A program made the position numbers and the translations under genes. From Candidatus Poribacteria bacterium (GTDB lineage: Bacteria; Poribacteria; WGA-4E; WGA-3G), in assembly GCA_965205015.1 (NCBI GenBank), contig OZ242029.1:3232001-3296000 (forward strand): 64,000 nucleotides of DNA. The letters are read 5' to 3'. Each line of letters begins with the position of its first letter. Position 1 is the stretch's first letter. Positions 35,711-57,339 of the stretch are shown here, piece by piece. The notes beneath the pieces are model-generated. The model did no database searches. It worked only from the letters and a program-made list of their open reading frames with translations, and was not told the origin of the DNA.

Positions 35711-38656
35711 CTATTTTTGTATCAACATCTTGCGTGTCGCGGTAAAATCGCCTGCGGTGAGCGTGTAGAAGTAGACACCACTCGCCACAGGTTCACCCAA
35801 CGCATTTCTGCCATCCCAATACGCCGCACGGCTCCGAGACGCATAGATATCCGCAGACTGATGCCCTAACGTCAGCATCCGAACCAAACGTCCATCTGCA
35901 GCATAGATAGAAATAGACACATCCGCAGGCTCTGATAACTGATACGGGATCCACGTCTCCGGGTTGAACGGGTTCGGATAGTTCGCTAAGAGCAGCGTCT
36001 CTTTCGGGGTGAGTATCGCAAGGAGCTGCTCCAGAAACAGGAACCCACGCTGATACCGCGCACCCGTGAGACCTTCTGCCCGCGCAAGCGATAACCACTG
36101 ACGCATCTCTGTCGCAGTGAACATCTCAGCAATGCTCTCCGGATGCAGGGACGGGGCAGCCGCTGCTGCTTCTATCGCCGTAGCAATTAACACGAGATCC
36201 GCGGCATCCACCACGCCATCCTTGTTCATATCCGCTGTGTTCTCACCCGTTTGACCCAGACGCTCCGAAGCGACAGTCATATCCTCAAGACTCACCACAC
36301 CATCACCGTTCACGTCTCCTATAAGTTGTGGAGAATCTCCTACCTCTCCAGTCTCAATCCGCACGGCTAAGAAGTCGGCATTGCTGTCGGTCAGTTTCAC
36401 ATCGGATAATATCGGCAGCGCAGGCGAGGCAGTCAGCACTTCAAACGTGAAGGCCGCAAGCATCCCATCCCCTTCACTGCTCTCTTGGAGAGAGGTCCCA
36501 CCAAACGTGACCCGATTGCCATTCACCACGGGCGGCACAACGAAAGCACCTGACGGTAGATACCCGCCATCCACACTTGACACAAAACGCAGGGCTGCAC
36601 GCTCGAAAGTGAGTTCTATCTGATACCCCCTCACATCTGCACCCTCTGTGATGTTAGTGTTCACCGTCAGTTGGTCACCTATGGTGCCAGACCCTACCGA
36701 CGTAGGGGAGAGACTCACCCGCGCAACATCGCTGTTGACAGACACCTCAGGCACTGCTGTTAGACTATCTATTTCAACCGAATAAGATTGTGAGATGTAG
36801 GGTGTGACATCCCACAGCAGCGTGCTGCCGTCACCACTTCCGCTTGCGAGTGTGGTGCCATCAGGCGAAAACGATACACTTCTGACAAAACTATGCCCTA
36901 TAAGCATCTGTATCTGCTCCCCTGTCTCTACGTCCCAGAGACGGATGGTGCCTTCCCAACCCGCTGTTGCGAGTGTGGTGCCATCAGGCGAAAACGATAC
37001 GCTAGAGACCCAACCCCAATGCCCTATAAGCGTCTGTATCTGCTCCCCCGTCTCTACGTCCCAGAGACGGATGGTTTTGTCCCTACTCCCTGTTGCGAGT
37101 GTGGTGCCATCAGGCGAAAACGACACGCTGTGGACACCATCCATATGTCCTGTGAGTGTTCGTATCTGCTCCCCTGTCTCTACGTCCCAGAGACGGATGG
37201 TCTTATCCTGACTCGCTGTTGCGAGTGTGGTGCCATCAGGCGAAAACGATACGCTATAGACACCCTCCGTATGCTTGGTGAGTGTTTGTATCTGCTTCCC
37301 CGTCTCTATGTCCCATAGATGCACGGGGCCGTCCACAATTCCGCTTGCGAGGGTGCCATCCGGAGCAAACGCCAAGCTACCTGCAAAATGCGTATGCCCT
37401 GTGAGTGTTTGTATCTGCTTTCCCGTCTTTACATCCCAGAGACGGATACCAAGGTATCCGCAATTAGTCGCGCTTGCGAGGGTGCCATTATCGGGAGAAA
37501 ACGACAGGCTACTGACAAGATTTATATGCCCTGTGAGTGTTTGTATCTGCCTCCCCGTTTTTACATCCCAGAGACGGATGGTTCCGTGCCCATTCCCGCT
37601 TGCGAGTGTGGTGCCATCCGGACTAAACGATACGCTATAGACAGAACTCGTATGCCGTGTGATCGTTCGTATCTGCTTCCCCGTCTCTACATCCCATAGA
37701 CAGATGCCGCCCAAATTCCCACTGGCGAGGGTGCTACTATCGGGAGAAAACGATACACTAACGACATAACCCGTATCTCCTTCAAGCGTCCGGATGTGGT
37801 TCCCTGTCTCTGCGTCCCAGAGACGGATGGTTCCATCCTGCCCCCCGCTTGCGAGCGTCCTACCATCAGGCGAAAACGATACGCTATGGACACCATCCGT
37901 ATGCCCTTCAAGCGTGCGGATGGGATTACCTGTCGCTACGTCCCATAAATGGATGGTTCCGTCCCCATTTCCGCTTGCGAGTGTGGTGCCATCCGGACTA
38001 AATGATACGCTATCGTTCCAATTCGCACCTCCTTGGAAGGTTTGGAACTGTTCGCCCGTCACTACGTCCCATAAACGGATAGTTTTATCACGACTCTCGC
38101 TTGCGAGTGTGGTGCCATCAGGCGAAAACGATACGCTATAGACCCAACCCGTATGCCCTTGGAGCATGCGGATGGGATCGCCTGTCGCTACGTTCCATAA
38201 ACGGATGGTTCCGTCCCCATTCCCGCTTGCGAGTGTAGTGCCGTCAGGCGAAAACGACACGCTACCGACAGTACTCGTATGCCCTTAGAACGTTCGTATC
38301 TGCTTCCCCGTTTCTACGTCCCATAAACGAATAGTTCTGTCATTACTCCCACTTGCGAGTGTGGTGCCATCAGGCGAAAACGATACACTCAAGACGACCC
38401 CATGCGTATGCCCCGTGAGTAGGTCAAGTGCCTCACCAGTCTCCGCATCGTAGACCCAAATACCGATAGAACTCGCAGCCACCAGACGCGTCGCATCCGG
38501 GGAATACGCTATCTCGTATATACGCCCTTTATCAAGGCGCGCTTTGGCACCCTCGGGTAAACCCCATTGCGTGTCGTCTTGCGCGAAGGTGTTTGCTGAA
38601 AAAACGGTGAACGCATACAATAGGGTCAAAACAATAAAAAAACGTCTGTTTTTCAT
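35711..38656 (-). pseudogene. Secreted WD40-repeat / cohesin / dockerin-like / FlgD-like protein with a single in-frame TAA at 38285-38287
   Basis: ORFs 38285..38731 and 35711..38260 share a frame (…IRTF*GHTSTVGSVSFSPDG…). Signal peptide from ATG 38656, about 12 SFSPDG..LASG...IRLWD repeats, GDVNGDGVV dockerin-like motif, NYPNPFNPETWIPY…ASGVYFY tail. Confidence 0.85.
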
Positions 38657-43458: not shown

Positions 43459-45078
43459 CTACACACCTATTGCATACCCATCGCGCCGGGGGTCAGCACC
43501 ACCCATAAAGCTTCCTTCTTCGGGATCGAAAGCGATGCCGTGTCCGCCGCCGACGGTTGCGGTCCAATCAGGCAACACCTCAACCTCATGTCCGCGTGCT
43601 TCTAACGCCGCACGGACAGCAGCAGGAATCCGTCCCTCTATGCTGACATGTGTTCCCGGATTTACCAAGCGAACGCGCGGTGCTTCGATCGCCGCTTGGA
43701 CGTTCATCCCGTGTTCAATCAGGTTTAGCACCATCTGTAGTGTCGTTTGAAGGATGCCGTGGCTTCCAGGTGTGCCAATCGCCGCGAACGGATTTCCGTC
43801 CTTCCAGACTTGGCACGGCGACATGCACATCTCTATCCGTTTATGCGGTCCAACAGCGTTCGGACTCTCTGGGATTCTATCAAACCAATTCATGAAATTG
43901 TTGAGGAACATTCCTGTTGAACCGAGAATTACGCCTGAACCGAAAGGTTGTCCGAGGCTCTGTGTCACTGCGACGATATTGCCCTCTGCATCGGCGGTGT
44001 CAAAATGGGTTGTGCATTCGGTCGTCCAGTCATCAGCTACGATCTCGCCGGGAAGTTTGTCCTTTGACCAACGTTCACCCCCGCTGACTGCAGCCTGCTC
44101 ACCGATGCGTTCACGTTGTGCACGTGCATAGTCTTTGGATAACAAACGTTCAATCGGTGGATTCGGACGCGGAGCGTATTCGGCTCTATCCGCACTGGCT
44201 AACTTAATCGCTTCAATCAGTAGATGTAGATATTCTGGGGTATTGTGTCCGAGTTCACCGAGGGCATCGCCTTCCAAAATATTCAATGTCTCCAAGTACT
44301 GAAAACCTGAACACGGCGGCGGTGGACAGTAGACTTCATAATCCTTGTAGGTGACAGAGATAGGTTCCTGCCACTCCACCTCGAAGTCAGCCAAATCCTT
44401 TTCGGTAATTAGTCCATCAGTTTCTTCGGAAAAACGGACGATCTCTTTGGCAATCTCGCCGCGATAGAATGCCTCCACTCCGCCTTCAGCGACTTGACGG
44501 AATGTATTGGCTAAATCCTTTTGCACCAAGACCTCACCGGGGTGTGGTGTCCTCCCTCGTGAGGCGATCACCTCTTCAGCTCTCTCGGAGAAATAGGGAC
44601 GCGCACCTGCGATAAATTCCGCATTCTTGACGGTGACGGCGTATCCATTTTCCGCCAGTTCAATCGCTGGTGTAAAGATATCCGCGTGATCCATACTTCC
44701 GTAGCGTTCCAAGAGGGCAAGCCACCCACCACAGCCACCCGGTACCATACCGGCCCGAATACCGACCTGCTGACTTTCGAGGGTTGGATAGACATCCAGT
44801 GTTGCCGCGTAAGGGGCAGTGCCGAGATAATCTATCACGTGGTGTCTTTTTTCCTTCGCATTATAGAGCAACATGTACCCGTTACCCGCGATACCCGACA
44901 TATAAGGCTCAACCACATTGAGCGTTGAAGCGACTGCGACGGCTGCATCAAATGCGTTACCGCCAGCGAGCAACATGCGCGCGCCAGCAAGGCTGGCAAG
45001 CGGATGTGCACTCGTTACCATTCCGCGTGTACCCGTTACAGTCGATCGATGCGTTGTGCCGTGTGATGGAAAAGCCAT
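43459..45078 (-). CDS. ggt: Gamma-glutamyltransferase family protein, second paralog
   Basis: GGNAFDAA, ECTTHF nucleophile, GTPG and ADPRRDG motifs. Confidence 0.9.
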   Translation of the reverse strand: MAFPSHGTTHRSTVTGTRGMVTSAHPLASLAGARMLLAGGNAFDAAVAVASTLNVVEPYMSGIAGNGYMLLYNAKEKRHHVIDYLGTAPYAATLDVYPTLESQQVGIRAGMVPGGCGGWLALLERYGSMDHADIFTPAIELAENGYAVTVKNAEFIAGARPYFSERAEEVIASRGRTPHPGEVLVQKDLANTFRQVAEGGVEAFYRGEIAKEIVRFSEETDGLITEKDLADFEVEWQEPISVTYKDYEVYCPPPPCSGFQYLETLNILEGDALGELGHNTPEYLHLLIEAIKLASADRAEYAPRPNPPIERLLSKDYARAQRERIGEQAAVSGGERWSKDKLPGEIVADDWTTECTTHFDTADAEGNIVAVTQSLGQPFGSGVILGSTGMFLNNFMNWFDRIPESPNAVGPHKRIEMCMSPCQVWKDGNPFAAIGTPGSHGILQTTLQMVLNLIEHGMNVQAAIEAPRVRLVNPGTHVSIEGRIPAAVRAALEARGHEVEVLPDWTATVGGGHGIAFDPEEGSFMGGADPRRDGYAIGV

Positions 45079-45195: not shown

Positions 45196-45540
45196 TTAGT
45201 TTGTAAACTTTGCTAAATACTTCCAGACCCAGTGCCACCGGAGCTGCCAGATTAATTTCCGGCGATTGATGTGATGCTCGAAAAGTCTTTGCCCATCTAA
45301 CTCAAGCACAGGAATCAGATGTTTATATTTCGTGAAGAGTCCGAGATTCTTTGTGATGTTAATCTCCTCTACTGCAATAAACGGTGTCTTTGCTTCAATG
45401 CGCTGCAGCACCACTTTTGCCTCATCGCAGAGCGGGCAGTCCGGTTTCGTGTAGAACTGGAGTTGTATGGGTTTGCTTTTCAACAGAATTGCTTTGAAGT
45501 AAAATCTGCTAATATAAAAAATACGTGTGATTGCTTCCAA
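45196..45540 (-). CDS. Glutaredoxin-like (DUF836) protein
   Basis: FYTKPDCPLCDEAK (CxxC) and IPVL motifs; the true start may lie downstream of the track start. Confidence 0.8.
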   Translation of the reverse strand: MEAITRIFYISRFYFKAILLKSKPIQLQFYTKPDCPLCDEAKVVLQRIEAKTPFIAVEEINITKNLGLFTKYKHLIPVLELDGQRLFEHHINRRKLIWQLRWHWVWKYLAKFTN

Positions 45541-45577: not shown

Positions 45578-48500
45578 TTACGCATCTTTTTTACGTCTGT
45601 AGACCAGTAGGTTTCGGTATTTACGAAACACCTCTACGGTCTCAGTTGCTTTCTTTTGGGTAGCGATGTCTAATGGTGTTTCGCCATTGTTGGTTTCCGC
45701 ATGAACATCTACACCACGATCTAATAATACCTCGGCTGTTTTATACGCATTGTGCCATGCTGCTTCATGTAGAGGCATATATCCATGGTGGTCTTTTGCC
45801 TCAATATCCGCCCCGTATTTTAACAAGACTTCGGCTGTTTTATACGCATTGTGCTGTGCTGCTTCATGTAGAGGCGTATATCCATATTTGTCTTTTGCCT
45901 CAATATCCGCGCCATGTTTGATGAGTCTCTCAGTTTGCTCATAACTGTCGTTCTTCGCTGCCAAGTGCAACAACGTCTCACTATCCGAGTTTCTGTATTT
46001 ACAAAACACCTCCAGGGTCTCAGTCGCTTTCTTTCGTATAGCATTGTGCAATGCTGCTATATGTAGTGGTGTCCATCCATTATTGCTTTTTGCATTGACA
46101 TCTGCCCCGTTATCAATCAGGACTTCGGCTGTTGTATAAGCATTATTCCGAGCTGCTTCATGTAGTGGGGTATTACCCCATTTGTTTTCTACCATAGTAT
46201 CCGCCCCATTATCAATTAGTATTTCGGCTGCTTTATGCGTATTGTGCAATGCTGCAGTATGTAGAGGGGTATTCCCTGATCGGTCTTCTGCCTCAATATT
46301 CGCCCCATTTTTCAGTAAAACTTCTGCCATTTCGTAAGCATCGTGACGGGCTACATGATGTAGCAGAGCCTCACCTTTCCCATCCTTTACGTCTACATCC
46401 GCGCCATGTTTGATGAGTCTCTCCGCTTGTTCATAACTGTCGTTCTTCACTGCTAAGTGCAACAACGTCTCCCCAGATGCGTTTCGGTATTTACAGAACA
46501 CCTCCACGGTCTCAGTCGCTTTCATTCGTATAGCGATGTCTAATGGCGTTTCGCCACTGCTGGTTTCCGCATGAACATCTACACCACACTCCAATAATAC
46601 CTCGGCTGTTTTATGCGCATTGTGCAATGCTGCTATATGTAGTGGTGTCCAGCGACTGTTGTTTTTTGCGTTGACATCTGCTCCATTATCAATCAGTATT
46701 TCGGCTGCTTTATGCGCATTGTGCCATGCTGCTCTATGTAGAGGGGTATTCCCCGATCGGTCTTCTGCGTCTATATCCACCCCATTATTAATCAGTATTT
46801 CGGCTATTTCATAATCACTTTGTGATGCAGCAGTATGTAGGGGGGGCCAGCGACTGTTGCTTTTTGCGTTGACATCTGTCCCATTATTAATCAGTATTTC
46901 GGCTGCTTTATGTGCATTGTGCAATGCTGCTATATGTAGTGGTGTCCAGCTGTCCCTATCTTTTGTGTTGACATCCGCTCCATTATTAATCAGTATTTCG
47001 GCTATTTCATAATCATTTTGTGATGCTGCTATATGTAGTGGTATCCAGTCCCTGTTACTTTTTGCGTTGACATTTGCTCCATTGTCAATCAGTATTTCGG
47101 CTGCTTTATGTGCATTGTGCAATGCTGCTTCATGTAGAGGGGTACATCCATATTGGTTTTCTGCCTCAATATCCGCCCCATTATCAATCAGTATTTCGGC
47201 TGCTTTATGCGTATTGTGCCATGCAGCAGTATGTAGAGGGGTATTCCCTGATCGGTCTTCTGCCTCAATATCCGCGCCATGTTTGATGAGTCTCTCAGTT
47301 TGCTCATAGTTGTCGTTCTTCACTGCTAAGTGCAACAACGTCTCACCAGATGCGTTTCTATATTTACAAAACACCTCCACAGTCTCAGTCGCTTTCATTC
47401 GTATAGCGATGTCTAATGGCGTTTTGCCCCTGCTGGTTTCCGCATGAACATCTACACCGCGCTCCAATAATACCTCGGCTGTTTTATGTGCATTGTGCAA
47501 TGCTGCTTCATGTAGTGGTGTCCAGTCCCTGTTGCTTTTTACGTTGACCTCTGCCCCGTTATCAATCAGTATTTCGGCTATTTCATAATCACTTCGTGAT
47601 GCAGCAGTATGTAGTGGTGTCCATCCATTGTTGTTTTTTGCGTTGACCTCTGCTCCATTATCAATCAGTATTTCGGTTGCTTTATACGCATTGTGCAATG
47701 CTGCAGTATGTAGAGGGGTATTCCTCGACTGGTCTTCTGCCTCAATATCCGCTCTATGTTTGATGAGTTTCTCTATTTGTTCATAACTGCCGTTCTTCAC
47801 TACTAAGTGCAGCAACGTCTCACTATCCGAGTTTCTATATTTACAAAACACATCAATGGTCTTAGTTGCTTTCTTTCCGGTAGCGATGTCTAATGGCGTT
47901 TCGCCCCTGCTGGTTTCCGCATGAATATCTGCACCACGCTCCAATAATACCTCGGCTGTTTTATGTGCATTGTGCAATGCTGCTTCATGTAGAGGGGTAC
48001 ATCCAAATTGGTTTTCTGCTTCTATATCCGCCCCATTATCAATCAGTATTTCGGTTGCTTTATACGCATTTTGCAATGCTGCAGTATGTAGAGGAGTATT
48101 CCCCGATCGGTCTTTTGCCTCAATATCCGCTCCGTGTTTGATGAGTCTCTCAGTTTGCTCATAACTGCCGTCCTTCACTGCCAAGTGCAGCAACGTCTCG
48201 CCAGATGCGTTTCGGTATTTACAAAACACATCAATGGTCTTAGTCGCATTTTCTTGTATAGCAATGTCTAATGGCGTTTTACCACTACTGATTTCTGCAT
48301 GAACATCTGCACCGCGCCCCAATAATACCTCGGCTGTTTTATACGCATTTTTCAGAGCTGCTATGTGTAGTGGTGTCCATCCACTGTTGGTTTCCGCATG
48401 AACATCTGCACCGCGCCCCAATAATACCTCGGCTGTTTTATGTGCATTGTGCAATGCTGCAAGATGTAGTGGTGTACATTCATATTGGTTTTCTGCCTCA

Positions 48501-51211
48501 ATATCCGCCCCATATTTCAACAAGACTTCGGCTGTTTTATGTGCATTGTGCAATGCTGCTTCATGTAGAGGGGTACATCCAAATTGGTTTTCTACCTCTA
48601 TATCCACCCCATTTTTTAGTAAAACTTCGGCCATTTCGTAAGCATCCTGACGGGCTGCATGATGTAGCAGAGCCTCACCTTCCCCATCCTTTGCGTCTAT
48701 ATCCGCTCCATGTTTGATGAGTCTCTCTATTTGCTCATAACTGTCGTTCTTCACTGCCAAGTGCAACAACGTCTCACCAGATGCGTTTCGGTATTTACAA
48801 AACACATCAATGGTCTCGGTCGCATTTTCTTGTATAGCGATGTCTAATGGCATCTTGCCACTGCTGATTTCCGCATGGACATCTGCACCGCGATCCAATA
48901 ATACCTCGGCTGTTTTATACGCATTTTTCAGAGCTGCTATATGTAGTGATGTCCAGCCATCCTTATCTTTTCTGTTGACCTCTGCTCCATTATCAATCAG
49001 GACTTTGGCTGTTTGATATGCATCCGAAAATGCTACTGCATATAGTGATGTCCAGCCGTCCTTATCTTTTGCGTTGACATCTGCCCCGTTATCAATCAGG
49101 ACTTCGGCGCATTCATGATTCTTCTGTGATGCTGCTATATGTAGTGATGTCCAGCCATCCTTATCTTTTCTGTTGACCTCTGCTCCATTATCAATCAGCA
49201 TTTCGGCTGTTTTATATCCATTGTTCCGGGTGGCTTCATGTAGAGGGGTACATCCATATTGGTTTTCTGCCTCAATATCCGCCCCATTTTTTAGTAAAAC
49301 TTCCGCTATCTCGTAGGCATCCTGAAACACTACCCAATGTAGCGGGGTGCAACTTTTATCATCCTTTGCGTCTATATCCGCCCCATGTTTGATGAGTCTC
49401 TTTATTTGCTCATAACTGTTGTTCTTCACTGCCAAGTGCAACAACGTCTCACCAGATGCGTTTCGGTATTTACAAAACACCTCCACGGTCTCAGTCGCTT
49501 TCTTTTCGGTAGCGATGTCTAATGGCGTTTCGCCCCTGCTGGTTTTCGCATGAACATCTACACCACGCTCCAATAATACCTCGGCTGTTTTATATCCATT
49601 GTTCCGGGTGGCTTCATGTAGAGGGGTACATCCATATTGGTTTTCTGCTTCTATATCTGCCCCATTGTCAATCAGTATTTCGGCTGCTTTATGCGTATTG
49701 TACCATGCAGCAGTATGTAGAGGGGTATTACCTGATCGGTCTTCTGCCTCAAAATCCGCCCTGTATTTCAACAATACCTCGGCTGTTTTATGTGCATTGT
49801 GCCATGCAGCAGTATGTAGGGGGGTATTACCTGATCGATCTTCTGTCTCTATATCCGCCCCATTTTTTAGTAAAACTTCGGCCATTTCGTAAGCATCCTG
49901 ACGGGCTGCATGATGTAGCAGAGCCTCACCTTCCCCATCCTTTGCGTCTATATCCGCGCCATGTTTGATGAGTTTCTCAGTTTGCTCATAACTGCCGTTC
50001 TTCACTGCTAAGTGCAACAACGTCTCACCAGATGCGTTTCGGTATTTACAAAACACATCAATGGTTTCAGTCGCATTTTCTTCTATAGCGATGTCTAATG
50101 GCGTTTCGCCACTGTGGGTTTCCGCATGAACATCTGCACCGCAATCCAATAATACTGTGGTTGTTTTATACGCATTATGAGATGCTGCTTCATGTAGTGG
50201 TGTCCATCCACTGTTGCTTTTTGCGTTGACGTCTGCTCCATGATTAATCAGGGCTTCGGCTATTTCATAATCATTTTGTGATGCTGCAAGATGTAAAGGG
50301 GTTCGTCCATATTCATCTCTGGCATCGACATCTGGCAGTAATCTACAGGAGGTTGGAACCCGGATCGTGCCACCGTTTGTAGTAATCACAAGCGTCGTTT
50401 CGTACGTTTCGTATGGTGTTAGCCGGTTTGCATCAAGTGTGATAGAGACGGGACCCCCACCGAGGACCTCACGCTCTGAAATTTCCAGTCCTGGCAATTC
50501 CTTTGAAAATTCAACCTCGCCATGGAGAAACCCGCGCCCGACATTTGTAATCTCAAGGTTCACGGTTTCCTGTGTATCAGTAGCAATGTTGTCAAAGTCT
50601 ATACGCGACAGACTGATCTGAGCCTCCGGCTTCCCGATATGAGGGTCCAGCGTTTGCACTAACATTTCCAACCCGACATCTTGTCTCGACCTGTATTGTT
50701 CTGTAATGTCTTTCGCAGTGTGTGCCAGTCGTGGTTGGTGAATACCTTCAAGCCATCTCGGAATCACACCGCTATAGAGTAACGTCTTGGCTTCCGTCCA
50801 ATTGCCATCAATCAAACGCGCCAAGTGCTGAGGTGTGTCGGGTTGATCGCCGTTTGTGAATGTGAACACAAAGGGTGCCGTTTCTCTTTTCGGCTCTGGT
50901 ATGTGCTCCTGTCGTTTTTGTAGATCAATTTCTGCTATGTGCGCCTGCCGTTTTTGCGGATCAATCAAAACGGCTTTTGCTTTATTCAGAATGTCCCGCC
51001 ACTGCTCTTCTGTTTTGCCATCAAGCCGAGGGCGCCCCCCCGCATTTAAAGACGCTCTATAAAGATTTTTATGCTTAGCGTCAACCTGTGCCGCAATAGT
51101 AGACTCAGAAAGGCTCTGAATATCCTCAACGGAGATCTCCAACACCTCAAAATAGTTAATGAATTCATCGCGTTTGGACATACTGTAGCTCTTTCGTATA
51201 TTCAAAGGCAT
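45578..51211 (-). CDS. Giant ankyrin-repeat protein with N-terminal degenerate J-like domain and BACON/Ig-like domain
   Basis: Roughly 45 TPLH.AA…GADV repeats from about residue 293; N-terminal NYFEVLEI…LNKAKAVL.DP.KR..H; middle DF…ITNVGRG.L.G…TTNGG; alternative start ATG 51181. Confidence 0.9.
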   Translation of the reverse strand: MPLNIRKSYSMSKRDEFINYFEVLEISVEDIQSLSESTIAAQVDAKHKNLYRASLNAGGRPRLDGKTEEQWRDILNKAKAVLIDPQKRQAHIAEIDLQKRQEHIPEPKRETAPFVFTFTNGDQPDTPQHLARLIDGNWTEAKTLLYSGVIPRWLEGIHQPRLAHTAKDITEQYRSRQDVGLEMLVQTLDPHIGKPEAQISLSRIDFDNIATDTQETVNLEITNVGRGFLHGEVEFSKELPGLEISEREVLGGGPVSITLDANRLTPYETYETTLVITTNGGTIRVPTSCRLLPDVDARDEYGRTPLHLAASQNDYEIAEALINHGADVNAKSNSGWTPLHEAASHNAYKTTTVLLDCGADVHAETHSGETPLDIAIEENATETIDVFCKYRNASGETLLHLAVKNGSYEQTEKLIKHGADIDAKDGEGEALLHHAARQDAYEMAEVLLKNGADIETEDRSGNTPLHTAAWHNAHKTAEVLLKYRADFEAEDRSGNTPLHTAAWYNTHKAAEILIDNGADIEAENQYGCTPLHEATRNNGYKTAEVLLERGVDVHAKTSRGETPLDIATEKKATETVEVFCKYRNASGETLLHLAVKNNSYEQIKRLIKHGADIDAKDDKSCTPLHWVVFQDAYEIAEVLLKNGADIEAENQYGCTPLHEATRNNGYKTAEMLIDNGAEVNRKDKDGWTSLHIAASQKNHECAEVLIDNGADVNAKDKDGWTSLYAVAFSDAYQTAKVLIDNGAEVNRKDKDGWTSLHIAALKNAYKTAEVLLDRGADVHAEISSGKMPLDIAIQENATETIDVFCKYRNASGETLLHLAVKNDSYEQIERLIKHGADIDAKDGEGEALLHHAARQDAYEMAEVLLKNGVDIEVENQFGCTPLHEAALHNAHKTAEVLLKYGADIEAENQYECTPLHLAALHNAHKTAEVLLGRGADVHAETNSGWTPLHIAALKNAYKTAEVLLGRGADVHAEISSGKTPLDIAIQENATKTIDVFCKYRNASGETLLHLAVKDGSYEQTERLIKHGADIEAKDRSGNTPLHTAALQNAYKATEILIDNGADIEAENQFGCTPLHEAALHNAHKTAEVLLERGADIHAETSRGETPLDIATGKKATKTIDVFCKYRNSDSETLLHLVVKNGSYEQIEKLIKHRADIEAEDQSRNTPLHTAALHNAYKATEILIDNGAEVNAKNNNGWTPLHTAASRSDYEIAEILIDNGAEVNVKSNRDWTPLHEAALHNAHKTAEVLLERGVDVHAETSRGKTPLDIAIRMKATETVEVFCKYRNASGETLLHLAVKNDNYEQTERLIKHGADIEAEDRSGNTPLHTAAWHNTHKAAEILIDNGADIEAENQYGCTPLHEAALHNAHKAAEILIDNGANVNAKSNRDWIPLHIAASQNDYEIAEILINNGADVNTKDRDSWTPLHIAALHNAHKAAEILINNGTDVNAKSNSRWPPLHTAASQSDYEIAEILINNGVDIDAEDRSGNTPLHRAAWHNAHKAAEILIDNGADVNAKNNSRWTPLHIAALHNAHKTAEVLLECGVDVHAETSSGETPLDIAIRMKATETVEVFCKYRNASGETLLHLAVKNDSYEQAERLIKHGADVDVKDGKGEALLHHVARHDAYEMAEVLLKNGANIEAEDRSGNTPLHTAALHNTHKAAEILIDNGADTMVENKWGNTPLHEAARNNAYTTAEVLIDNGADVNAKSNNGWTPLHIAALHNAIRKKATETLEVFCKYRNSDSETLLHLAAKNDSYEQTERLIKHGADIEAKDKYGYTPLHEAAQHNAYKTAEVLLKYGADIEAKDHHGYMPLHEAAWHNAYKTAEVLLDRGVDVHAETNNGETPLDIATQKKATETVEVFRKYRNLLVYRRKKDA

Positions 51212-51250
51212 CGCGGCTAAAATTATGGATTGCTACAAAGGGATACCAGT

Positions 51251-52846
51251 TTATTCGACTGTCAAACCTTGCATATCTGTTTGTGCCTGTGTGACAGCTT
51301 CTTCATCAAGTGTGGGTCGTTTAATGATGGAGAAAACATCATAAACTGCGGTTGCCCCCTTGTGGCTCAGAGATTTTGCCGTTACTTCAAGCACTTGGTC
51401 AAAGTTATATTTGTAAGTAACATGAACAGGAGATCCTGCTGGTAGTCCTGGGGGTAGTTCGAGGGTACATTCACCCAATTTATATTCGTCGAAAAGATCT
51501 ATATCGTCTTTTCGTTGATCCTGTTCAAGGCTCTGGACAACCTCAATCAAGACTAAGCGTTGGTTGTTGTCCACTGTTCCAAACTGATCTGCTATCTCAC
51601 AGGGGACTGGAGTCATTTTCTTAATCATGACGTGGATAATAGACTCGCGTGCTGCGTTGAGAACAACAAGCCCAAGATTATGTGTAGCACCATCGGTCAC
51701 AGTCACTTTAGGAGCACCGTCCGCTCCGATGAACTGTTCAATCACAGCGGCAGACATATCGGCTGTTGCTGCGTCCTCTTCGGATATCTGGCGGAGTGTT
51801 CCCTGAATTGCTGCCCCCAAGGCAACCGCTTCGTCAGGGTTGATTTCATTCGGGTTGATCTCTTTACCGCTGATGGTTGCGAGCATTTCTTGCACCATGG
51901 GCATCCGAGTGGATCCCCCTACTAATAGTACGGTGTCAATATCTGTCCATGTCATGTTGCCTTCATCGAGGACTATGTCGCAGAGGACTCGACATCTCTC
52001 AAGGAGTGCAGCAGTGAGTTCCTGAAACTTTTCACGCGTCAATTCTACACGTGTCGTCTTACCATTATATCCGCAAACGATGCGTGCTTTTTCTCGCCGT
52101 GACAAAGATTCTTTCGCACCGATTGCATTAAGTTGAAGGTCTTGATACGTGTGAAGGTCCTGTAACGGGTTCTCACCGTGTTCAATCTCAAACATTTTGG
52201 CAACATAGATAATAATGGCATTGTCCCAATCTTTACCCCCGAGTCTGTGATCTCCGTTCGTTGCGAGCATCTGGATTGTGGATTGGGAAACTTTCATAAG
52301 GGTTACATCGAGTGTTCCACCGCCAAGGTCAAACACAAATACGTTCTGGTCGGTGTCGAGTTGATCTATTCCATAAGCGAGCGCGGCGGCCGTCGGTTCG
52401 TTCAGTACCTGTAGGACGTTCAACCCGGCAATTTTACCGGCGTTGCGCGTGGCTTCGCGTTCTGCATCGCGAAAATAGGCGGGAACCGTAATAACAGCAT
52501 CCGTGATTTCGGTGTTGAGATATGCTTCGGCATCTTGTTTGAGTTTTGTCAAAATCAGTGCGGATAGTTCTTCGGGTGAATAGTTCTTATCATCAAAGTT
52601 TCGGAAAAACGTTTCTTTTGATTTCCCCATCTCGCGTTTGACGAATTCAACAATTTGTTCTGGAACTGATCTGGCGTTCTGTTTGGCGATTTTTCCGACG
52701 GTAACAAGATCGTCTTCAAACATAACCACCGACGGGGTAATCCGATCGCTTTCGGCGTTCGGTATAATTTCTGGCTGCCCATATTCGTCAATGTGCGCAA
52801 TGGCTGAAAATGTTGTACCTAAATCAATACCAACAACTTTACCCAT
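51251..52846 (-). CDS. Hsp70/DnaK-family protein lacking the C-terminal helical lid
   Basis: GIDLGTT, TVPAYF, NEPTAAA, FDLGGGT, VGGSTRMP and NPDEAVALGAA motifs; only 531 aa. Confidence 0.92.
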   Translation of the reverse strand: MGKVVGIDLGTTFSAIAHIDEYGQPEIIPNAESDRITPSVVMFEDDLVTVGKIAKQNARSVPEQIVEFVKREMGKSKETFFRNFDDKNYSPEELSALILTKLKQDAEAYLNTEITDAVITVPAYFRDAEREATRNAGKIAGLNVLQVLNEPTAAALAYGIDQLDTDQNVFVFDLGGGTLDVTLMKVSQSTIQMLATNGDHRLGGKDWDNAIIIYVAKMFEIEHGENPLQDLHTYQDLQLNAIGAKESLSRREKARIVCGYNGKTTRVELTREKFQELTAALLERCRVLCDIVLDEGNMTWTDIDTVLLVGGSTRMPMVQEMLATISGKEINPNEINPDEAVALGAAIQGTLRQISEEDAATADMSAAVIEQFIGADGAPKVTVTDGATHNLGLVVLNAARESIIHVMIKKMTPVPCEIADQFGTVDNNQRLVLIEVVQSLEQDQRKDDIDLFDEYKLGECTLELPPGLPAGSPVHVTYKYNFDQVLEVTAKSLSHKGATAVYDVFSIIKRPTLDEEAVTQAQTDMQGLTVE

Positions 52847-53732
52847 CTATATCTGTCTCCTTTTCGGGTTTTGAATTTTCGACCATATCCTTTTTAGGTG
52901 TTGTTTCTTGGAGGACTGCCGTTTCTTGAGATTCATTCTCAGGCTGCGTATACCGTGAGATTTTCACCTCTGCTGGACGAATTACCTTCTCGTGCCAATA
53001 GAAACCGACTTTATGAATGTGAACCACCTTTTGATCTTCATCAGGGTTCGCTGTTGGCACGGTCTCAACGGTCTTATGAAGTTCTCTATTAAGATTCTCG
53101 GAATGATCTTCTGCTTCATAGGGACGGACATCCATGCGATACAGCACCTCTTCCAGTTCAAAACGGAGATTCTCCAAATTGCTACGAAAGTGTGTCAATT
53201 TTTCTTGGGTATATGGATGAGACGGCACTTCTGCCTGTCCTTCATCACAGATTTCGGTTAATTGCGATTCAACCTCCACAAAACTATCATACAACTGAAT
53301 GAGATTATGGACAATTGGTTTATGAATTGCCTCAAGAAGGGCATTTTCCTTGTAATCCTTCATTTCACGATAGACTGTGGCGAACATCTTTTGTTGATTC
53401 TGGTTACGCCCGATCTGATGTTGAAACAGATTCTCTAACCGCGTCAAGGATTGGTGCATCCCCGTTAGAACGTTTTGAAGAGGTTCAATACCTTTATTCT
53501 CAGACGGGGCTGCTTCTTTCGTTGAAGTGGTATCAGGAGCTACCTCGGTTTGAGAACCGTTTCCGTTTTTGGTTGGATGTGGGGTCTTCTCAGGCGTTCG
53601 CGGTGTTGATCCAACATCCTTCTCTGATCCGCTTTCTACGTTACCCGCTGCCTCTTTCGAAGAAAAATCGGTATCCATATCAGAATTTGAAGCCGCGCTT
53701 GTCTCATCAGTCTTTAACGCTTCTTTGCACAA
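52839..53732 (-). CDS. grpE: GrpE-like nucleotide exchange factor
   Basis: Disordered N-terminus, coiled coil, and H..V..…VVHIHKVGF..HEKVIRPAEV C-terminal motif; overlaps the Hsp70 start. Confidence 0.8.
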   Translation of the reverse strand: MCKEALKTDETSAASNSDMDTDFSSKEAAGNVESGSEKDVGSTPRTPEKTPHPTKNGNGSQTEVAPDTTSTKEAAPSENKGIEPLQNVLTGMHQSLTRLENLFQHQIGRNQNQQKMFATVYREMKDYKENALLEAIHKPIVHNLIQLYDSFVEVESQLTEICDEGQAEVPSHPYTQEKLTHFRSNLENLRFELEEVLYRMDVRPYEAEDHSENLNRELHKTVETVPTANPDEDQKVVHIHKVGFYWHEKVIRPAEVKISRYTQPENESQETAVLQETTPKKDMVENSKPEKETDIDG

Positions 53733-53837
53733 AATTACTATCTCCTTCCAGTGTCAAAACGTAACTGCCTTGTGGGGCGATGCGCTCTTTTTTTTTCACT
53801 ATAAAGCAACATGTACTCGTTGCCAGCAATACCCGAC

Positions 53838-53945
53838 ATATAGCAAAATTTAGAATTAATTGGACACTCTGCCCCAGCGAGGTTGGGAAACCTCGCCTAC
53901 CGAGTACGGGTGGAATGTCTGTTTATTTTTCGGATTTACCATATA
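53838..53945. mobile_element. MITE-like element with REP hairpin (relative of 15654-15778)
   Basis: TATAGCAAAATTTAGAATTAATTGGACA ... TGTCTGTTTATTTTTCGGATTTACCATAT ends around GCGAGGTTGGGAAACCTCGCCTAC. Confidence 0.65.
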
Positions 53946-53949
53946 AGAC

Positions 53950-54195
53950 TCAACAACACTGCGACACTAACTTCCAATAGTTGGCGTGGTGCACAAAAAG
54001 TTGTTGTCTGTCCAACTCAAACACGGGAATCAGATACTTATATTTCGTGAAGAGTCCGAGATTCTTTGTGATGTCAATTTCTTCTACTGCAATAAACAAT
54101 GTCTTTGCTTCAATGCGCTGCAGCACCACTTTTGCCTCGTCGCAGAGCGGGCAATCCGGTTTCGTGTAGAGCTGGAGTTGGATTGGAATTTCCAT
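53950..54195 (-). CDS. Second, 3'-shortened glutaredoxin-like (DUF836) copy
   Basis: About 200 bp highly similar to 45270-45470; CPLC motif intact. Confidence 0.7.
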   Translation of the reverse strand: MEIPIQLQLYTKPDCPLCDEAKVVLQRIEAKTLFIAVEEIDITKNLGLFTKYKYLIPVFELDRQQLFVHHANYWKLVSQCC

Positions 54196-54759: not shown

Positions 54760-57339
54760 ATGATACGCGGAACTGTTGAGACCAAGTTAAGACCTATCAA
54801 GTTAGCATTCCTTGTAAACCCTGAAGATAGAGTTTCTCTGCAGCAAGCTATAGAAATTAACACTTTTCTGTGGGGTGGAGTGTATAATCCAATAATTCCG
54901 ACTTATAAAGAACTTCCTGCCGGATGGCAAGATGACCCTTTTCTTAGAAGTCCAAGCCCTCAAGAATTGGTTTCTGGCTACTTGGACAATTTTGATCCTG
55001 ACTATGTTGTTCCGATGGGTGAGTGTGTTGATTATACCCCTGATGTTGATGATTTCAATAAAATCACGGATGTATCAGAGATACTTGAATCAGTCGATAC
55101 AGACGATGCGCCTATCTACGGAATAGGTCTTTTTGAAGTTTTGAGTTACTTTTTTGAGAAAGAACTCAAATTTCAAAGGAAATATCCATTAGATATATGC
55201 GTGCCTCAATTTAACGGTAACTTTGATCTCTTTTTTGCGAGTGTTTTTGGGAAACTGTCTGAAAGTATTAACACGATTTTTTGGGAACGCGTTGCTAATC
55301 ATTTAGAAGTAAAAAGAATAGATTGTTCCGCCTCAAACTACGTAGAGTTGCTTGAATTCCCACTCTTTTTGAGGCGTATGACCCGTTTATACCTTACGCA
55401 TAGTGGTAATTATGAGGAGTGTGTTTACCTCCTGGATGTCACTAAACCGATTGATGTTATAGATTATTGGAATCTTCGAGCTGTTGGTTGGAAAGTGTTT
55501 GCTGTCCCAAAACAATTTTCACAAGATGACATAGTTCAGAAAACTGTTCAACGTATTATTGAAGAGAAGTACGCTTACTACGACGATCCGATAAAAGATC
55601 AGTTTTATCGCCCGATAACACTTTTGAAAAGCCGATCTGTCTCTGAAGATGAACAGAGGCAATTTGTAGATTCATTGGGTAGTTCACTTTCTGATATACC
55701 CAATAAAGATAAAGGTCCAAAGTACTTGTTTAAGACGATGTATCCGAGAATATGGGACGAATGGGCACGAAGTCGTGACCATGTTGAATGTTGCGAGATT
55801 AAATCTGACACAGTGGAGCATGATATATCAACGAACGAAGCAACGATTCGTGTAAAAACCTTGGAACCGAAATTTTCTCGCCATCTTTTTACCGGATTAG
55901 GGGAACCGCGTTTTGTAAACGAATTTAATCTGCGATTATACAGTGATAAACAACTCTTAGCGGATATAATCCCTAAAGGCGATTTGCACCTTGCTAGTGT
56001 GATCAGTAGATATGATCGACTCAACTGGCGTATATCCAGAAAAGGGTTAGTCCACCTGTCCAAACATTCAGAAAGAGGCTTGGAACTATTTATCCCTGAA
56101 GCAGAATCGATTTTCACAAGATGGTTGGAATTGCAAGGATGGACAGTCAAACTAAGATCTCCGGGTAAAATTGCCAAGCAGATGCTACAACAGCTTGATG
56201 GTATTGATGGTACTTGGATCTTGGCAAAAAAGGGCATTATTGAACTTTTAGGAGAAATGAGTAGCTATGCCAATATCCTAAAGAGGGTCCCCGAGGAACT
56301 GACAAAATTACAAACGTCTTTACAACAGAACGGAGTTCAGGGTTCGGCAGATGAGATTGAAGGATTTGTAAAACATCTCAAAGAGATTGAACCGCAACTC
56401 GCAGATGACAAAAGACCTATGCTCGCAACGATTTTTTGGAGAAGGCTTAATGAGATTGTGGGGAAACCATTGGAGAAAGAAGAAGGATGGTCAAACGAAG
56501 TTCATAGGCGACGGGTTGATATTGAAGCAAAAGAGATCCGTAAGAAACTGATTGATTCAAATGCTCTCCAACTGGGACTGGAAGTTCAGTGCACGGTATG
56601 TAATAAACGCTCGTGGTATTCTCTGAAAAATTCGGATTACGAGTTACGATGTCCAGAATGCCATGCACAATTTGCCTTTCCACAAAATATTGAAGATATT
56701 CAGTGGGCATATCGTACACTCGGTGCCTTTAGTTCGTCTAACCAAGCTGACGGTGCCTACACGATGCTTTTGACGTTTCGTTTTTTCACTGTATTACTTG
56801 ATGGTGCAACAACTCCACTTATGAGTTTTGAAATTCAAAAAGCGGGGAAAGATCCTTTAGAAGTTGATTTGGGTCTATTTTTCCAAAGATCTAAATTCTC
56901 TAAATCCGAAACTAAAATCATTTTTGCGGAATGTAAAACATTTAATCCATTTGAACAGAAAGATATTGATAGAATGAGAGATTTAGGAAACGCTTTTCCC
57001 GGCGCGATCCTCGTCTTTGCCAAACTCACAGAATCCTTTAATGATGAGGAGAAAGCACTTCTTAGTCCTTTGGTAGAAGCATCTTGGGAACGCTATGGTA
57101 AAAATCAGCCATATAATCCTATATTGATCCTTACTGGAAAAGAACTTTATCTGGATTTGCTCTGGGAATCACATTTGGCTAAAGTTCGATACTGGGATTT
57201 ATTAGATATTTGTTCTTTGACGCAGGAATTGTATTTGGGCAGAGACTTGAGGCGTGAGCAAGATAACAACATTGAGCAGCGTGTAACACGTGCAACATGG
57301 TCGCCTATTGTTCGTCCACAGAACAATCAAAATCAATAG
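54760..57339 (+). CDS. Large hypothetical protein with Zn-ribbon and C-terminal PD-(D/E)XK-like nuclease motif (candidate defence protein)
   Basis: CTVC…CPEC and EVDL…IFAECK motifs; N-terminal RPIKLAFLV…WGG.YNPIIP; visibly AT-richer than flanks. Confidence 0.7.
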   Translation: MIRGTVETKLRPIKLAFLVNPEDRVSLQQAIEINTFLWGGVYNPIIPTYKELPAGWQDDPFLRSPSPQELVSGYLDNFDPDYVVPMGECVDYTPDVDDFNKITDVSEILESVDTDDAPIYGIGLFEVLSYFFEKELKFQRKYPLDICVPQFNGNFDLFFASVFGKLSESINTIFWERVANHLEVKRIDCSASNYVELLEFPLFLRRMTRLYLTHSGNYEECVYLLDVTKPIDVIDYWNLRAVGWKVFAVPKQFSQDDIVQKTVQRIIEEKYAYYDDPIKDQFYRPITLLKSRSVSEDEQRQFVDSLGSSLSDIPNKDKGPKYLFKTMYPRIWDEWARSRDHVECCEIKSDTVEHDISTNEATIRVKTLEPKFSRHLFTGLGEPRFVNEFNLRLYSDKQLLADIIPKGDLHLASVISRYDRLNWRISRKGLVHLSKHSERGLELFIPEAESIFTRWLELQGWTVKLRSPGKIAKQMLQQLDGIDGTWILAKKGIIELLGEMSSYANILKRVPEELTKLQTSLQQNGVQGSADEIEGFVKHLKEIEPQLADDKRPMLATIFWRRLNEIVGKPLEKEEGWSNEVHRRRVDIEAKEIRKKLIDSNALQLGLEVQCTVCNKRSWYSLKNSDYELRCPECHAQFAFPQNIEDIQWAYRTLGAFSSSNQADGAYTMLLTFRFFTVLLDGATTPLMSFEIQKAGKDPLEVDLGLFFQRSKFSKSETKIIFAECKTFNPFEQKDIDRMRDLGNAFPGAILVFAKLTESFNDEEKALLSPLVEASWERYGKNQPYNPILILTGKELYLDLLWESHLAKVRYWDLLDICSLTQELYLGRDLRREQDNNIEQRVTRATWSPIVRPQNNQNQ

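Follow-up and report, generated by a model that had tools for sequence, protein, structure and literature searches.

Three adjacent genes in a genome of Candidatus Poribacteria, a sponge-symbiont bacterium, raise the question of whether a bacterium can run a second Hsp70 machine beside DnaK, with its own exchange factor and its own J-fold partner. The genes lie in the 64 000-nucleotide stretch analysed here (the window; contig OZ242029.1, positions 3 232 001 to 3 296 000, forward strand) and encode a GrpE-like protein, a short Hsp70 and a giant ankyrin-repeat protein that we call the adaptor. The sequence-only reading had described a co-oriented set in which grpE overlaps the Hsp70 gene and 39 bp precede the third ORF. 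This layout is correct: all three ORFs are on the minus strand and intact, the end of the GrpE-like ORF (52839) overlaps the start of the Hsp70 ORF (52846) by 8 nt, and 39 nt lie between the Hsp70 stop at 51251 and the adaptor ORF start at 51211. Family alignment suggests that the true adaptor start is M11 at 51181, which would widen the gap to 69 nt. The features of the locus are as follows.

52839..53732, minus strand: GrpE-like gene (297 aa, TTG start)
51251..52846, minus strand: short lidless Hsp70 gene (531 aa)
45578..51211, minus strand: adaptor ORF (1877 aa; likely start M11 at 51181)
50897..51181, minus strand: J-like domain of the adaptor, residues 11–105 (hhalign, AF2 model, Foldseek)
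50636..50875, minus strand: module B of the adaptor, residues 113–192, helical, no family assigned
50330..50635, minus strand: module C of the adaptor, residues 193–294, Ig-like, BACON_2/HYDIN type (phmmer)
45581..50329, minus strand: ankyrin array of the adaptor, ∼48 repeats (Pfam, TRF, motif count)
45299..45465, no strand: 167-bp direct repeat, left copy, within a glutaredoxin-like gene (45196–45540, minus strand)
54014..54180, no strand: 167-bp direct repeat, right copy, within another glutaredoxin-like ORF that is shorter (53950–54195, minus strand)

The GrpE-like protein matches Pfam GrpE (PF01025) with 58.3 bits (cut-off 25.8) over model positions 8–164 of 165. Because it scores under all NCBIfam GrpE equivalog cut-offs, it is, as judged by profile scores, a divergent member of the family. 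The GrpE domain spans residues 84–259 and residues 1 to ∼80 are of low complexity. The protein is 49% identical to its counterpart at locus L001. A BLASTP search for a GrpE-like gene beside the Hsp70 found one in L113 and none in the other four of the five closest relatives (L114, L129, L130 and L137).

The short Hsp70 is composed of a nucleotide-binding domain, an altered interdomain linker (VTVTD where DnaK has VLLLD), a substrate-binding domain of the beta-sandwich type and a conserved tail of 30 aa whose last residues are LTVE. Aligned to E. coli DnaK it keeps D8, K70, E171, T199 and D201, the ATPase motifs already recognized from the letters, and it belongs to the Hsp70 superfamily. Pfam HSP70 (PF00012) scores 402 bits and covers only model positions 1–491 of 599; the lid is therefore absent, and in the DnaK alignment the chain stops ∼30 residues past the beta-sandwich. 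The protein falls outside canonical DnaK, with 397.8 versus 822.55 bits for TIGR02350 and 409.7 versus 648 for PRK00290. The replaced linker, the missing lid and the view that this is not the housekeeping DnaK had thus been read correctly. A canonical full DnaK and GrpE are encoded elsewhere in all five related genomes that were checked. Residues of DnaK named as J contacts in PMC8215388 and PMC7289447 are R167, L391, P419, Q378, D477 and D211. The short clade has the substitutions R167Q (invariant), E206K, E217Q, L390T, L392T, N415M and D477K, whereas the DnaK of related genomes G138 and G099 retains all canonical J-contact residues. The deletion of loop 210–213 in the short Hsp70 is uninformative, because the lineage's own DnaK has the same deletion.

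The adaptor N-terminus has a J fold without HPD. The Pfam J-domain HMM (PF00226) does not match it, but hhalign aligns the J-like family to 45 true J domains of DnaJ, drawn from the ordinary dnaK operons of our genome-contig scan, with 95.5% probability (E 1.4e-8, window's sequence first) or 93.9% (E 1.6e-7, a relative's sequence first). Jac1 and HscB provide the top three of four PDB profile matches (E 0.12–0.45). The AF2 model of the window's domain (pLDDT 83.6) retrieves J-domain chains at Foldseek ranks 1–18, and a relative's model does so at ranks 1–16. In a structure search independent of Foldseek, the best 21 among the matches listed are J or J-like domains (Z 8.3–5.6). The Foldseek E-values (0.03–0.15) and VIA Z-scores (≤ 8.3) are each modest alone. 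The objection that this N-terminus might have no J fold is not borne out by the profile comparison or the predicted structure, and the J-like region lacking HPD that the sequence-only reading had noted is indeed there.

Where J domains have Y-H-P-D the window's protein has Y51-R-A-S54, HPD aligning to R52-A53-S54, and S54 is invariant across the J-like family. The loop between helices II and III is longer than in J domains and contains the family-invariant S54, L55, G58, R62, D64 and W71. Six of the nine invariant columns fall where J domains have HPD: in the last part of helix II, in the loop that follows and in the first part of helix III. No other part of the domain is as conserved as the loop that replaces HPD. 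In the alignments, the DnaK/DnaJ contact positions are thus altered in both the short Hsp70 and the J-like domain; the lineage's DnaK keeps the canonical residues, in line with the earlier claim that the interface has diverged on both sides relative to the housekeeping pair. According to PMC8215388, HPD is required by every J domain tested so far, and PMC7289447 describes changes at R167 that uncouple DnaK from DnaJ. The short Hsp70/J-like pair may therefore bind without ATPase stimulation, or not bind at all.

The two proteins co-occur in genomes. In the related phylum, of which 175 genomes were surveyed, the J-like module is found in 60 and the short Hsp70 in 59; both are present in 59, and only G130 differs. 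At least 40 of the 59 genomes have a J-like match within 1 kb downstream of the short Hsp70 on the same strand (18 genomes read from loci, 22 from match coordinates). Because the gene order repeats in so many genomes, the arrangement is beyond chance. Twenty regions chosen from J-like matches contain the Hsp70 in 17 cases and a GrpE-like gene in 13. A GrpE-like factor, a lidless Hsp70 and at least one protein starting with an HPD-less J fold form a conserved unit, and the expected linkage of this Hsp70 clade to GrpE-like and J-like genes is borne out. Usually the short Hsp70 heads a tandem array of 2–10 adaptor genes. Some adaptor genes are solitary or distant from the Hsp70 (L112, L118), and in G103 the array lies ∼600 kb away. 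A generic genome-contig scan with a DnaK pattern returned ordinary dnaK operons at 79 of 80 loci (36–47% identity), L001 being the only clade member. The named relatives of the module are all Candidatus Poribacteria.

The J-fold domain is fused to interchangeable, non-enzymatic binding domains, as the predicted swapping of C-terminal domains required. Scanning 33 J-like proteins gave an FGE-like domain in 28, WD40 in two, ankyrin in two and nothing in one; HEAT and TPR versions are also present. The catalytic cysteine pair of FGE, which we take to be GGS-x-x-C-x4-C as in human SUMF1, occurs in none of 90 full-length array proteins. The FGE-like domains therefore look like non-catalytic binding modules, and sulfatase maturation by a J-like/FGE protein acting on unfolded sulfatases was rejected on the same count. 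In NCBI the relatives go by no other names than 'formylglycine-generating enzyme family protein' or 'SUMF1/EgtB/PvdO family'; calling them enzymes probably misleads, and the putative docking domain is consequently unannotated in these proteins.

Against this background the one giant ankyrin adaptor of the window is derived and not typical of the family. Its module B, elsewhere, also follows Ser/Thr kinase domains. Module C, the Ig/BACON-like domain of the earlier reading, gives phmmer matches to the BACON_2-repeat proteins P0155 (19 stretches) and P0273 (10 stretches); Pfam has no match on the window's own copy. The ankyrin array is real (Pfam Ank, 910 bits, 36 stretches, 33-residue spacing; TRF, 99-bp period at 70–92% identity), but the earlier count of about 45 repeats is low: 43 units by motif count plus six implied by spacings of 66 and 132 residues give ∼48. 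Nine irregular 27-residue units with VF[CR]KYRN split the array into super-repeats. A match to NCBIfam AnkY (627.6 bits, cut-off 600), which would make the protein a Legionella Dot/Icm ankyrin effector, is driven by the repeats and was rejected; Pfam matches to Epsilon_antitox and DTW in module proteins were set aside as noise. A search for other giant adaptors (1032–3285 aa) gave five proteins, all FGE-type of 1033–1048 aa and none with ankyrin repeats. A 51-aa N-terminal segment, A0, is kept in all 97 relatives of alignment A2 and is absent from the window's adaptor, which may therefore be impaired. Neither a client nor an effector domain nor a secretion signal is evident.

Among known systems, DnaK–DnaJ–GrpE divides the work into the same three roles and has its genes in the same order (grpE, hsp70, J protein); here, however, the DnaK score, lid, linker and J-contact residues all depart from that model (397.8 versus 822.55 bits), and the adaptor lacks the HPD, G/F region and zinc finger of DnaJ. 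In E. coli HscC–DjlB/DjlC, a specialized third Hsp70 likewise has J proteins of its own, and its C-terminal region is shortened. HscC and the short Hsp70 have in common a four-residue insertion in loop L1,2 of the beta-sandwich, where HscC-type proteins carry 4–8 additional residues, and a weakened hydrophobic linker (VILTD in HscC, VTVTD here; PMC8215388 for HscC). HscC retains R167 and some of the lid, HPD is present in its J proteins and it is thought not to use GrpE (PMC8215388), whereas a GrpE-like gene belongs to the unit described here. The short Hsp70 is 35% identical to HscC, the same as to DnaK, and in our tree HscC sits on a long branch, its placement being unsafe. The HscA–HscB system (Jac1/Ssq1; Fe-S cluster) also pairs one Hsp70 with a J protein of class C, which delivers a defined client in its native state, and HscB and Jac1 are the best PDB sequence-profile matches of the J-like module. 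HPD, however, is present in HscB, HscA is lidded and does not require an exchange factor, and one adaptor with one client there stands against an adaptor family here.

Loss of HPD from a J fold is seen in Pam16/Tim16 and in 'pseudo-DnaJ' proteins, and both Tim14–Tim16 and a mouse pseudo-DnaJ are among our structure matches. Those proteins are eukaryotic; their genes do not neighbour that of a co-varying Hsp70, nor do they make up families in which binding domains are exchanged. Bacterial 'DnaK derivates' of Myxococcus and others are additional Hsp70 paralogues whose lid is shortened or missing, and a recent review describes them as unexplored 'dark matter' without assigned partners or functions (PMC13580251). 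The GAP1-N2 GTPase systems combine Hsp70, GrpE and DnaJ fused to repeats in a conflict setting (PMC7159879); the TRAFAC GTPase linked to Hsp70/GrpE genes that defines them is not found among the 15 neighbouring ORFs scanned at our locus. The descriptions consulted in PMC13580251 (section 6) and PMC7159879 make no mention of an HPD-less J-like family, of tandem adaptor arrays or of this short-Hsp70 clade, and we found no published description of an adaptor family with an HPD-less J-like domain.

We propose that the module is a dedicated second Hsp70 machine working beside the housekeeping DnaK, an explanation to which we give an even chance. The J-like domain would dock the adaptor where the nucleotide-binding domain, the linker and the beta-sandwich of the short Hsp70 meet, through its own conserved loop (S54, L55, G58, R62, D64, W71) instead of HPD, and the pair would be orthogonal to DnaK/DnaJ. 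The ankyrin solenoid of ∼48 repeats would hold a specific folded protein, with host, phage or self proteins as candidate clients. The lidless beta-sandwich, open to bulky native clients, could then grip a segment of the held protein or of the adaptor; ATP hydrolysis would remodel or hold the client and the GrpE-like factor would reset the cycle. The logic would be one engine with many substrate receptors, the receptor here being a single giant ankyrin protein. The earlier picture of a private chaperone is partly supported as a whole: the conserved, linked unit stands, whereas a single ankyrin adaptor is not its usual form, many small and mostly FGE-type adaptors being found instead. More speculatively, and rather unlikely in our view, the module could be an orthogonal 'receptor-array' chaperone, in which a non-HPD loop activates an Hsp70 with Gln in place of R167, up to 13 adaptors per genome are a recognition repertoire with which sponge symbionts capture or dismantle specific foreign proteins of host or phage origin, and the giant ankyrin protein is an extreme, recently expanded receptor. 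If true, non-HPD activation would be a new way to couple a J fold to Hsp70. The partners of this clade, its own exchange factor and a J-fold adaptor family, are legible from the genome. The canonical interface has changed on its two sides together, and this makes three questions testable: whether a J fold can drive an Hsp70 without HPD, how parallel Hsp70 systems are kept separate within one cell, and which ligands belong to the eukaryote-like repeat proteins so abundant in sponge symbionts.

The repeat proteins could instead be the cargo: the J-like tag would recruit the private Hsp70, which would fold or hold these large solenoid or lectin-like proteins themselves or pass them on, for example keeping eukaryote-like ankyrin proteins competent for export and hence for action on the sponge host. 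We think this unlikely. A solenoid of ∼48 repeats would be a demanding folding client, recombinant eukaryotic-like proteins of sponge symbionts reportedly alter phagocytosis by sponges (PMC13747020), and the restriction of named relatives to Candidatus Poribacteria is consistent with such a role; but the commonest partners (28 of 33) are FGE-like domains of ∼250 aa that would hardly need a private chaperone, and J domains classically mark targeting factors rather than clients. Inspection by eye revealed no signal-peptide-like hydrophobic stretch at the adaptor N-terminus, and no secretion genes were found among the neighbouring ORFs scanned. In a regulatory role resembling that of Pam16/Tim16, the HPD-less domain would bind its partner and hold it in check instead of activating it, so that the short Hsp70 is kept idle or localized by the adaptor up to the binding of a ligand to the repeats. 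The missing HPD, the replaced R167, which uncouples J stimulation in DnaK, and the Tim14–Tim16 complex among the structure matches (Z 5.6) fit this idea, which we nevertheless judge improbable: Pam16 acts on another J protein and the module encodes none with HPD, the presence of a dedicated exchange factor implies that the ATPase cycle is running, and it is the HPD-replacing loop that is most conserved.

The same tandem arrays can be read as serving immunity or conflict, much like the NTPase-centred systems of Kaur et al. (2020). Diverse binding domains would sense the proteins of an invader, and the Hsp70 ATPase would either set a threshold or neutralize those proteins. Arrays reach 13 paralogues per genome, and over eight of them the binding domain has diverged more than the J-like domain (48.8% versus 61.3% mean identity). 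The site is variable with flanking direct repeats and an adjoining low-GC orphan gene, a mad3/AriA-like domain occurs in one of 35 related proteins, and GTPase-centred conflict systems include Hsp70 with GrpE and DnaJ fusions (PMC7159879). We still hold this distinctly unlikely. PADLOC (PADLOC-DB 2.0) has no match to the GrpE-like protein or to the first 300 aa of the adaptor, gives a single weak match for the short Hsp70 (PDC-M61B, E 1.2e-5) and matches ankyrin-containing models to the whole adaptor through the repeats only. The 15 neighbouring ORFs scanned contain no GTPase family, toxin or nuclease effector (two have no family at all), and 48 pattern matches in viral contigs with the J-like profile yield no relatives. 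Moreover, the Hsp70 is 70–94% identical over 59 genomes and mostly single copy, with two copies in nine genomes, which looks like vertical inheritance. Finally, a decaying duplicate of the dnaK operon without a function of its own, suggested by the loss of lid, HPD and R167 and by a second copy with three in-frame stops in G138, is most improbable: all three of its ORFs are intact, the module is conserved in 59 genomes, and many columns of the short Hsp70 clade, some in the new C-terminal tail, are invariant. Contigs from two RNA libraries of one study (X12 and X15) also cover relatives of 50259–53984 at 90–95% identity, although contigs cannot show transcription.

The X12 and X15 contigs have joints within the ankyrin array, which may be repeat artefacts. 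Scans for promoters (19 sites versus 18.7 in shuffled sequence) and terminators (11 versus 9.4) gave no excess. A low-GC orphan gene adjoins the module, and the variable site has direct repeats on both sides; the two 167-bp copies are 93% identical and bracket the three genes. G138 has, at the syntenic site, a J-like/FGE gene in place of the window's module.

Three co-oriented genes make up the module, as the sequence-only reading had described: one for a GrpE-like protein, one for a short, lidless Hsp70 and one for a giant J-like/ankyrin protein, here called the adaptor.

52839–53732, (−) strand: GrpE-like ORF, 297 aa, TTG start
51251–52846, (−) strand: Hsp70 ORF, 531 aa
45578–51211, (−) strand: giant adaptor ORF, 1877 aa

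The first two ORFs share 8 nt, and the Hsp70 and adaptor ORFs lie 39 nt apart. The GrpE-like protein matches Pfam GrpE with 58.3 bits (cut-off 25.8) and scores under every NCBIfam GrpE equivalog. The Hsp70 matches Pfam HSP70 with 402 bits, covering only model positions 1–491 of 599, and stays far under the NCBIfam DnaK equivalog cut-off (397.8 versus 822.55 bits). Its nearest named relatives come from Candidatus Poribacteria, a sponge-symbiont phylum. Full-length DnaK (∼ 890 bits) and high-scoring GrpE (137–151 bits) are encoded elsewhere in all five related genomes examined.

Aligned with E. coli K-12 DnaK (whose numbering is used for the changes), the short Hsp70 retains the catalytic residues D8, K70, E171, T199 and D201. 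R167 is replaced by Gln, which is invariant among 14 clade members; the other changes are E206K, E217Q, N415M and D477K. The linker reads VTVTD instead of VLLLD and follows a 22-residue insertion. In DnaK, contact with the J domain is made by R167, L391, Q378, P419, D477 and D211 (Mayer, 2021, PMC8215388; Tomiczek et al., 2020, PMC7289447). Since the canonical DnaK of the closest genome (G138) and of G099 keeps R167, E206, E217, ILLLD, N415 and D477, the interface changes are specific to the short paralogue. A deletion of 210–213 is uninformative, because the lineage's own DnaK has it too. The β-sandwich is kept, its loop L1,2 carrying four inserted residues, but the chain ends ∼ 30 residues past the sandwich; the helical lid is thus absent. 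In its place is a tail in which R510, T512, L513, V518, A521, L528 and V530 are invariant among the 14 clade members. The tail (residues 508–531, window 51251–51325) is conserved to the final residue (..L-T-V-E), and we speculate that it is reminiscent of the EEVD tail, the docking motif of eukaryotic Hsp70.

A tree of 18 rows joins the short clade (support 100/100) to an Hsp70–von Willebrand A fusion of locus L001 (100/99) and separates it from every DnaK, that of its own lineage among them; the position of HscC, at the end of a long branch, is unreliable. The fusion (L001:6781–9048, (+) strand, 755 aa) lies directly upstream of a GrpE-like/short-Hsp70 pair; it has R167 intact and forms the sister branch to the short clade. 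G138 has a second GrpE-like/short-Hsp70 pair (C1:207330–209658), whose Hsp70 match contains two TAG stops and one TAA stop and is probably a pseudogene.

No J domain is found by Pfam in the adaptor N-terminus. When a profile of 80 family members was compared by hhalign with one of 45 true J domains from ordinary dnaJ genes, they aligned over 61 columns with the window sequence leading (probability 95.5%, E 1.4e-8). With a relative leading the values were 93.9% and 1.6e-7, and a three-helix segment ahead of the J-like domain stayed unaligned. Three of the four PDB profile matches are Jac1 and HscB (E 0.12–0.45). An AF2 model of residues 11–110 (pLDDT 83.6, pTM 0.71) gave J-domain chains at Foldseek ranks 1–18 (E 0.03–0.15, probability 0.84–1.0, target TM ≤ 0.71), and a relative's model gave them at ranks 1–16. 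An independent structure search with the relative's model placed J or J-like domains in its top 21 rows (Z 8.3–5.6). Because these four individually modest lines (hhalign, PDB profiles and two sets of structure searches) agree, we read module A (residues ∼ 16–100) as a J fold on profile and model grounds, which bears out the J-domain-like region lacking HPD noted from sequence alone. R52-A53-S54 aligns with the HPD tripeptide of true J domains. The helix II–III loop exceeds J-domain length, and its region holds six of the nine invariant family columns (S54, L55, G58, R62, D64 and W71, window numbering). Right behind the J-like core is a 36-bp tandem duplication (50895–50965; two copies, 85%) that repeats the peptide QKRQ(A/E)HI.

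A phmmer search with adaptor residues 1–295 against 1.84 billion representatives returned 537 matches at E ≤ 0.001. These place module A at protein N-termini, with modules B (∼ 113–192) and C (∼ 193–294) found behind other domains too, so this part of the adaptor is modular. Among 48 scanned matches, a Ser/Thr kinase precedes B–C in 20 (e.g. P0148, P0170, P0182 and P0258); the others carry FGE-sulfatase (formylglycine-generating enzyme; 9), ankyrin (8), HEAT (2), WD40 (1), BACON_2 repeats (2), or little or nothing (6). Given these 20 kinases, one B–C 'stalk' serves kinase-headed and J-like-headed proteins alike. Matches of module C to BACON_2 repeats in P0155 and P0273 bear out the earlier Ig/BACON-like assignment. 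Pfam ankyrin matches start at about residue 296. In L001, a J-like + B protein (281 aa) and a BACON + HEAT protein (477 aa) are separate genes with overlapping ends.

Linkage was surveyed in 175 genomes of the phylum of clade member L001. Module A is present in 60 and the short Hsp70 (E ≤ 1e-170) in 59, the lists differing only by G130, which has a weak module-A match. Twenty regions, the best rows on long contigs and hence not a random sample, were inspected: in 17 the short Hsp70 lies directly upstream of 2–10 tandem genes starting with module A, and 13 also have a GrpE-like gene, while L112, L118 and L123 have neither chaperone gene. Adjacency of Hsp70 and module A holds in at least 40 of the 59 genomes, including 22 judged by coordinates (module-A match ≤ 1 kb downstream, same strand). 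A grpE–hsp70–J-like core with swapped C-terminal domains, anticipated by the sequence-only reading, thus recurs. Most of the 33 module-A proteins scanned are of FGE-sulfatase type (28), the rest having WD40 (2), ankyrin (2; 679 and 885 aa) or nothing (1); HEAT and TPR forms exist as well. The FGE cysteine-pair motif, familiar from human SUMF1, occurs in 0 of 90 full-length array proteins, which suggests a binding rather than an enzymatic role for their FGE-like domains. Within eight arrays, J-like domains share a mean pairwise identity of 61.3% and FGE-like domains one of 48.8%. P0204 (368 aa) fuses the J-like module to a C-terminal region matching PADLOC mad3 (E 5e-26), AriA and mad8, the sole defence-linked architecture among 35 proteins scanned.

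Within this conserved system the window's module is an atypical, derived member, with one giant ankyrin adaptor that lacks A0. Relatives begin with MSKRDEFI, followed by the 51-residue, three-helix A0 and then the J-like domain; in the window NYFEVL stands directly behind MSKRDEFI, an exact in-frame absence of A0. Since a contig from another sample (run X12, record 13) runs uninterrupted across this site, the form lacking A0 is not confined to the window's assembly. A single adaptor follows the Hsp70, and the 64-kb window holds no further copies of modules A, B or C. No relative found comes near the adaptor in length: a search for other giant adaptors among proteins of 1032–3285 aa gave only five FGE-type proteins of ∼ 1040 aa. 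In the five loci whose short Hsp70 is closest to the window's (L113, L114, L129, L130 and L137), an ankyrin-only gene of 300 aa that lacks the J-like module lies directly upstream of the Hsp70, and BLASTP found no GrpE-like gene in four of them; the window is the opposite, having the GrpE-like gene but not the small ankyrin one. It also encodes an 849-aa WD40 β-propeller protein (35711–38260, (−) strand), a eukaryote-like repeat protein without the J-like module.

The private chaperone module proposed earlier is supported in part, by the J fold without HPD, the changed Hsp70 contact residues and the recurring linkage with swapped C-terminal domains. The short Hsp70 would be an orthogonal engine with its own GrpE-like exchange factor, addressed by adaptors through the HPD-less J fold; in the window the binding part would be the very long ankyrin solenoid. 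We give this overall explanation about an even chance. The repeat proteins encoded beside the Hsp70 could instead be its cargo, which we regard as unlikely; that the module with its varied C-terminal domains is an immune repertoire seems to us a little less likely again. A Pam16-like restraining role for the J-like domain, which has R52-A53-S54 at the HPD site, is improbable, and a module in decay very improbable indeed. An orthogonal engine with dedicated adaptors would resemble HscA–HscB and HscC–DjlB/C, specialised Hsp70s with dedicated J proteins. Lid-shortened 'DnaK derivates' are called widespread and unexplored in a 2026 review (PMC13580251). The GTPase-centred conflict systems of Kaur et al. 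(2020, PMC7159879) include Hsp70 + GrpE + DnaJ fusions; the window's module differs in having no GTPase among the neighbours scanned. The kind is therefore already known, but for this conserved Poribacteria system full-text searches yielded no description of the short-Hsp70 clade, the HPD-less J-like family or the adaptor arrays, though supplements may list such neighbourhoods.

Synteny with G138 extends on both sides of the module site. There the order is gfo, a J-like/FGE gene (429 aa), glutaredoxin-like, ggt, nudix, bmp and ycf48, with no Hsp70. The window has at this site the three-gene module, a second, truncated glutaredoxin-like ORF and two orphan genes (∼ 40% GC).

45299–45465 and 54014–54180: 167-bp direct repeat (93%), bracketing the module
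44862–44904 and 53800–53842: 43-bp direct repeat (88%), bracketing the module
53950–54195, (−) strand: second glutaredoxin-like ORF, 81 aa, truncated, within the duplicated pieces
54760–57339, (+) strand: orphan ORF, 859 aa
57398–57910, (+) strand: orphan ORF, 170 aa

The bracketing repeats stem from a duplication: pieces of the glutaredoxin-like/ggt junction recur upstream of the GrpE-like gene. Along with the differences in gene content at this site from genome to genome, they suggest that recombination at a variable site brought the module in or rearranged it. Contigs of other sequencing runs contain a joint that goes back from ∼ 53984 to ∼ 45281. Neither orphan ORF has a family in Pfam or PADLOC, and the syntenic locus L112 contains neither of them. 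Visual inspection of the 859-aa orphan shows a zinc-ribbon-like motif (C-x2-C...C-x2-C) and, as a possible sign of a PD-(D/E)xK nuclease, a D...E-C-K motif. Strain variants are numerous, diverging at 53800–53950 in run X1.
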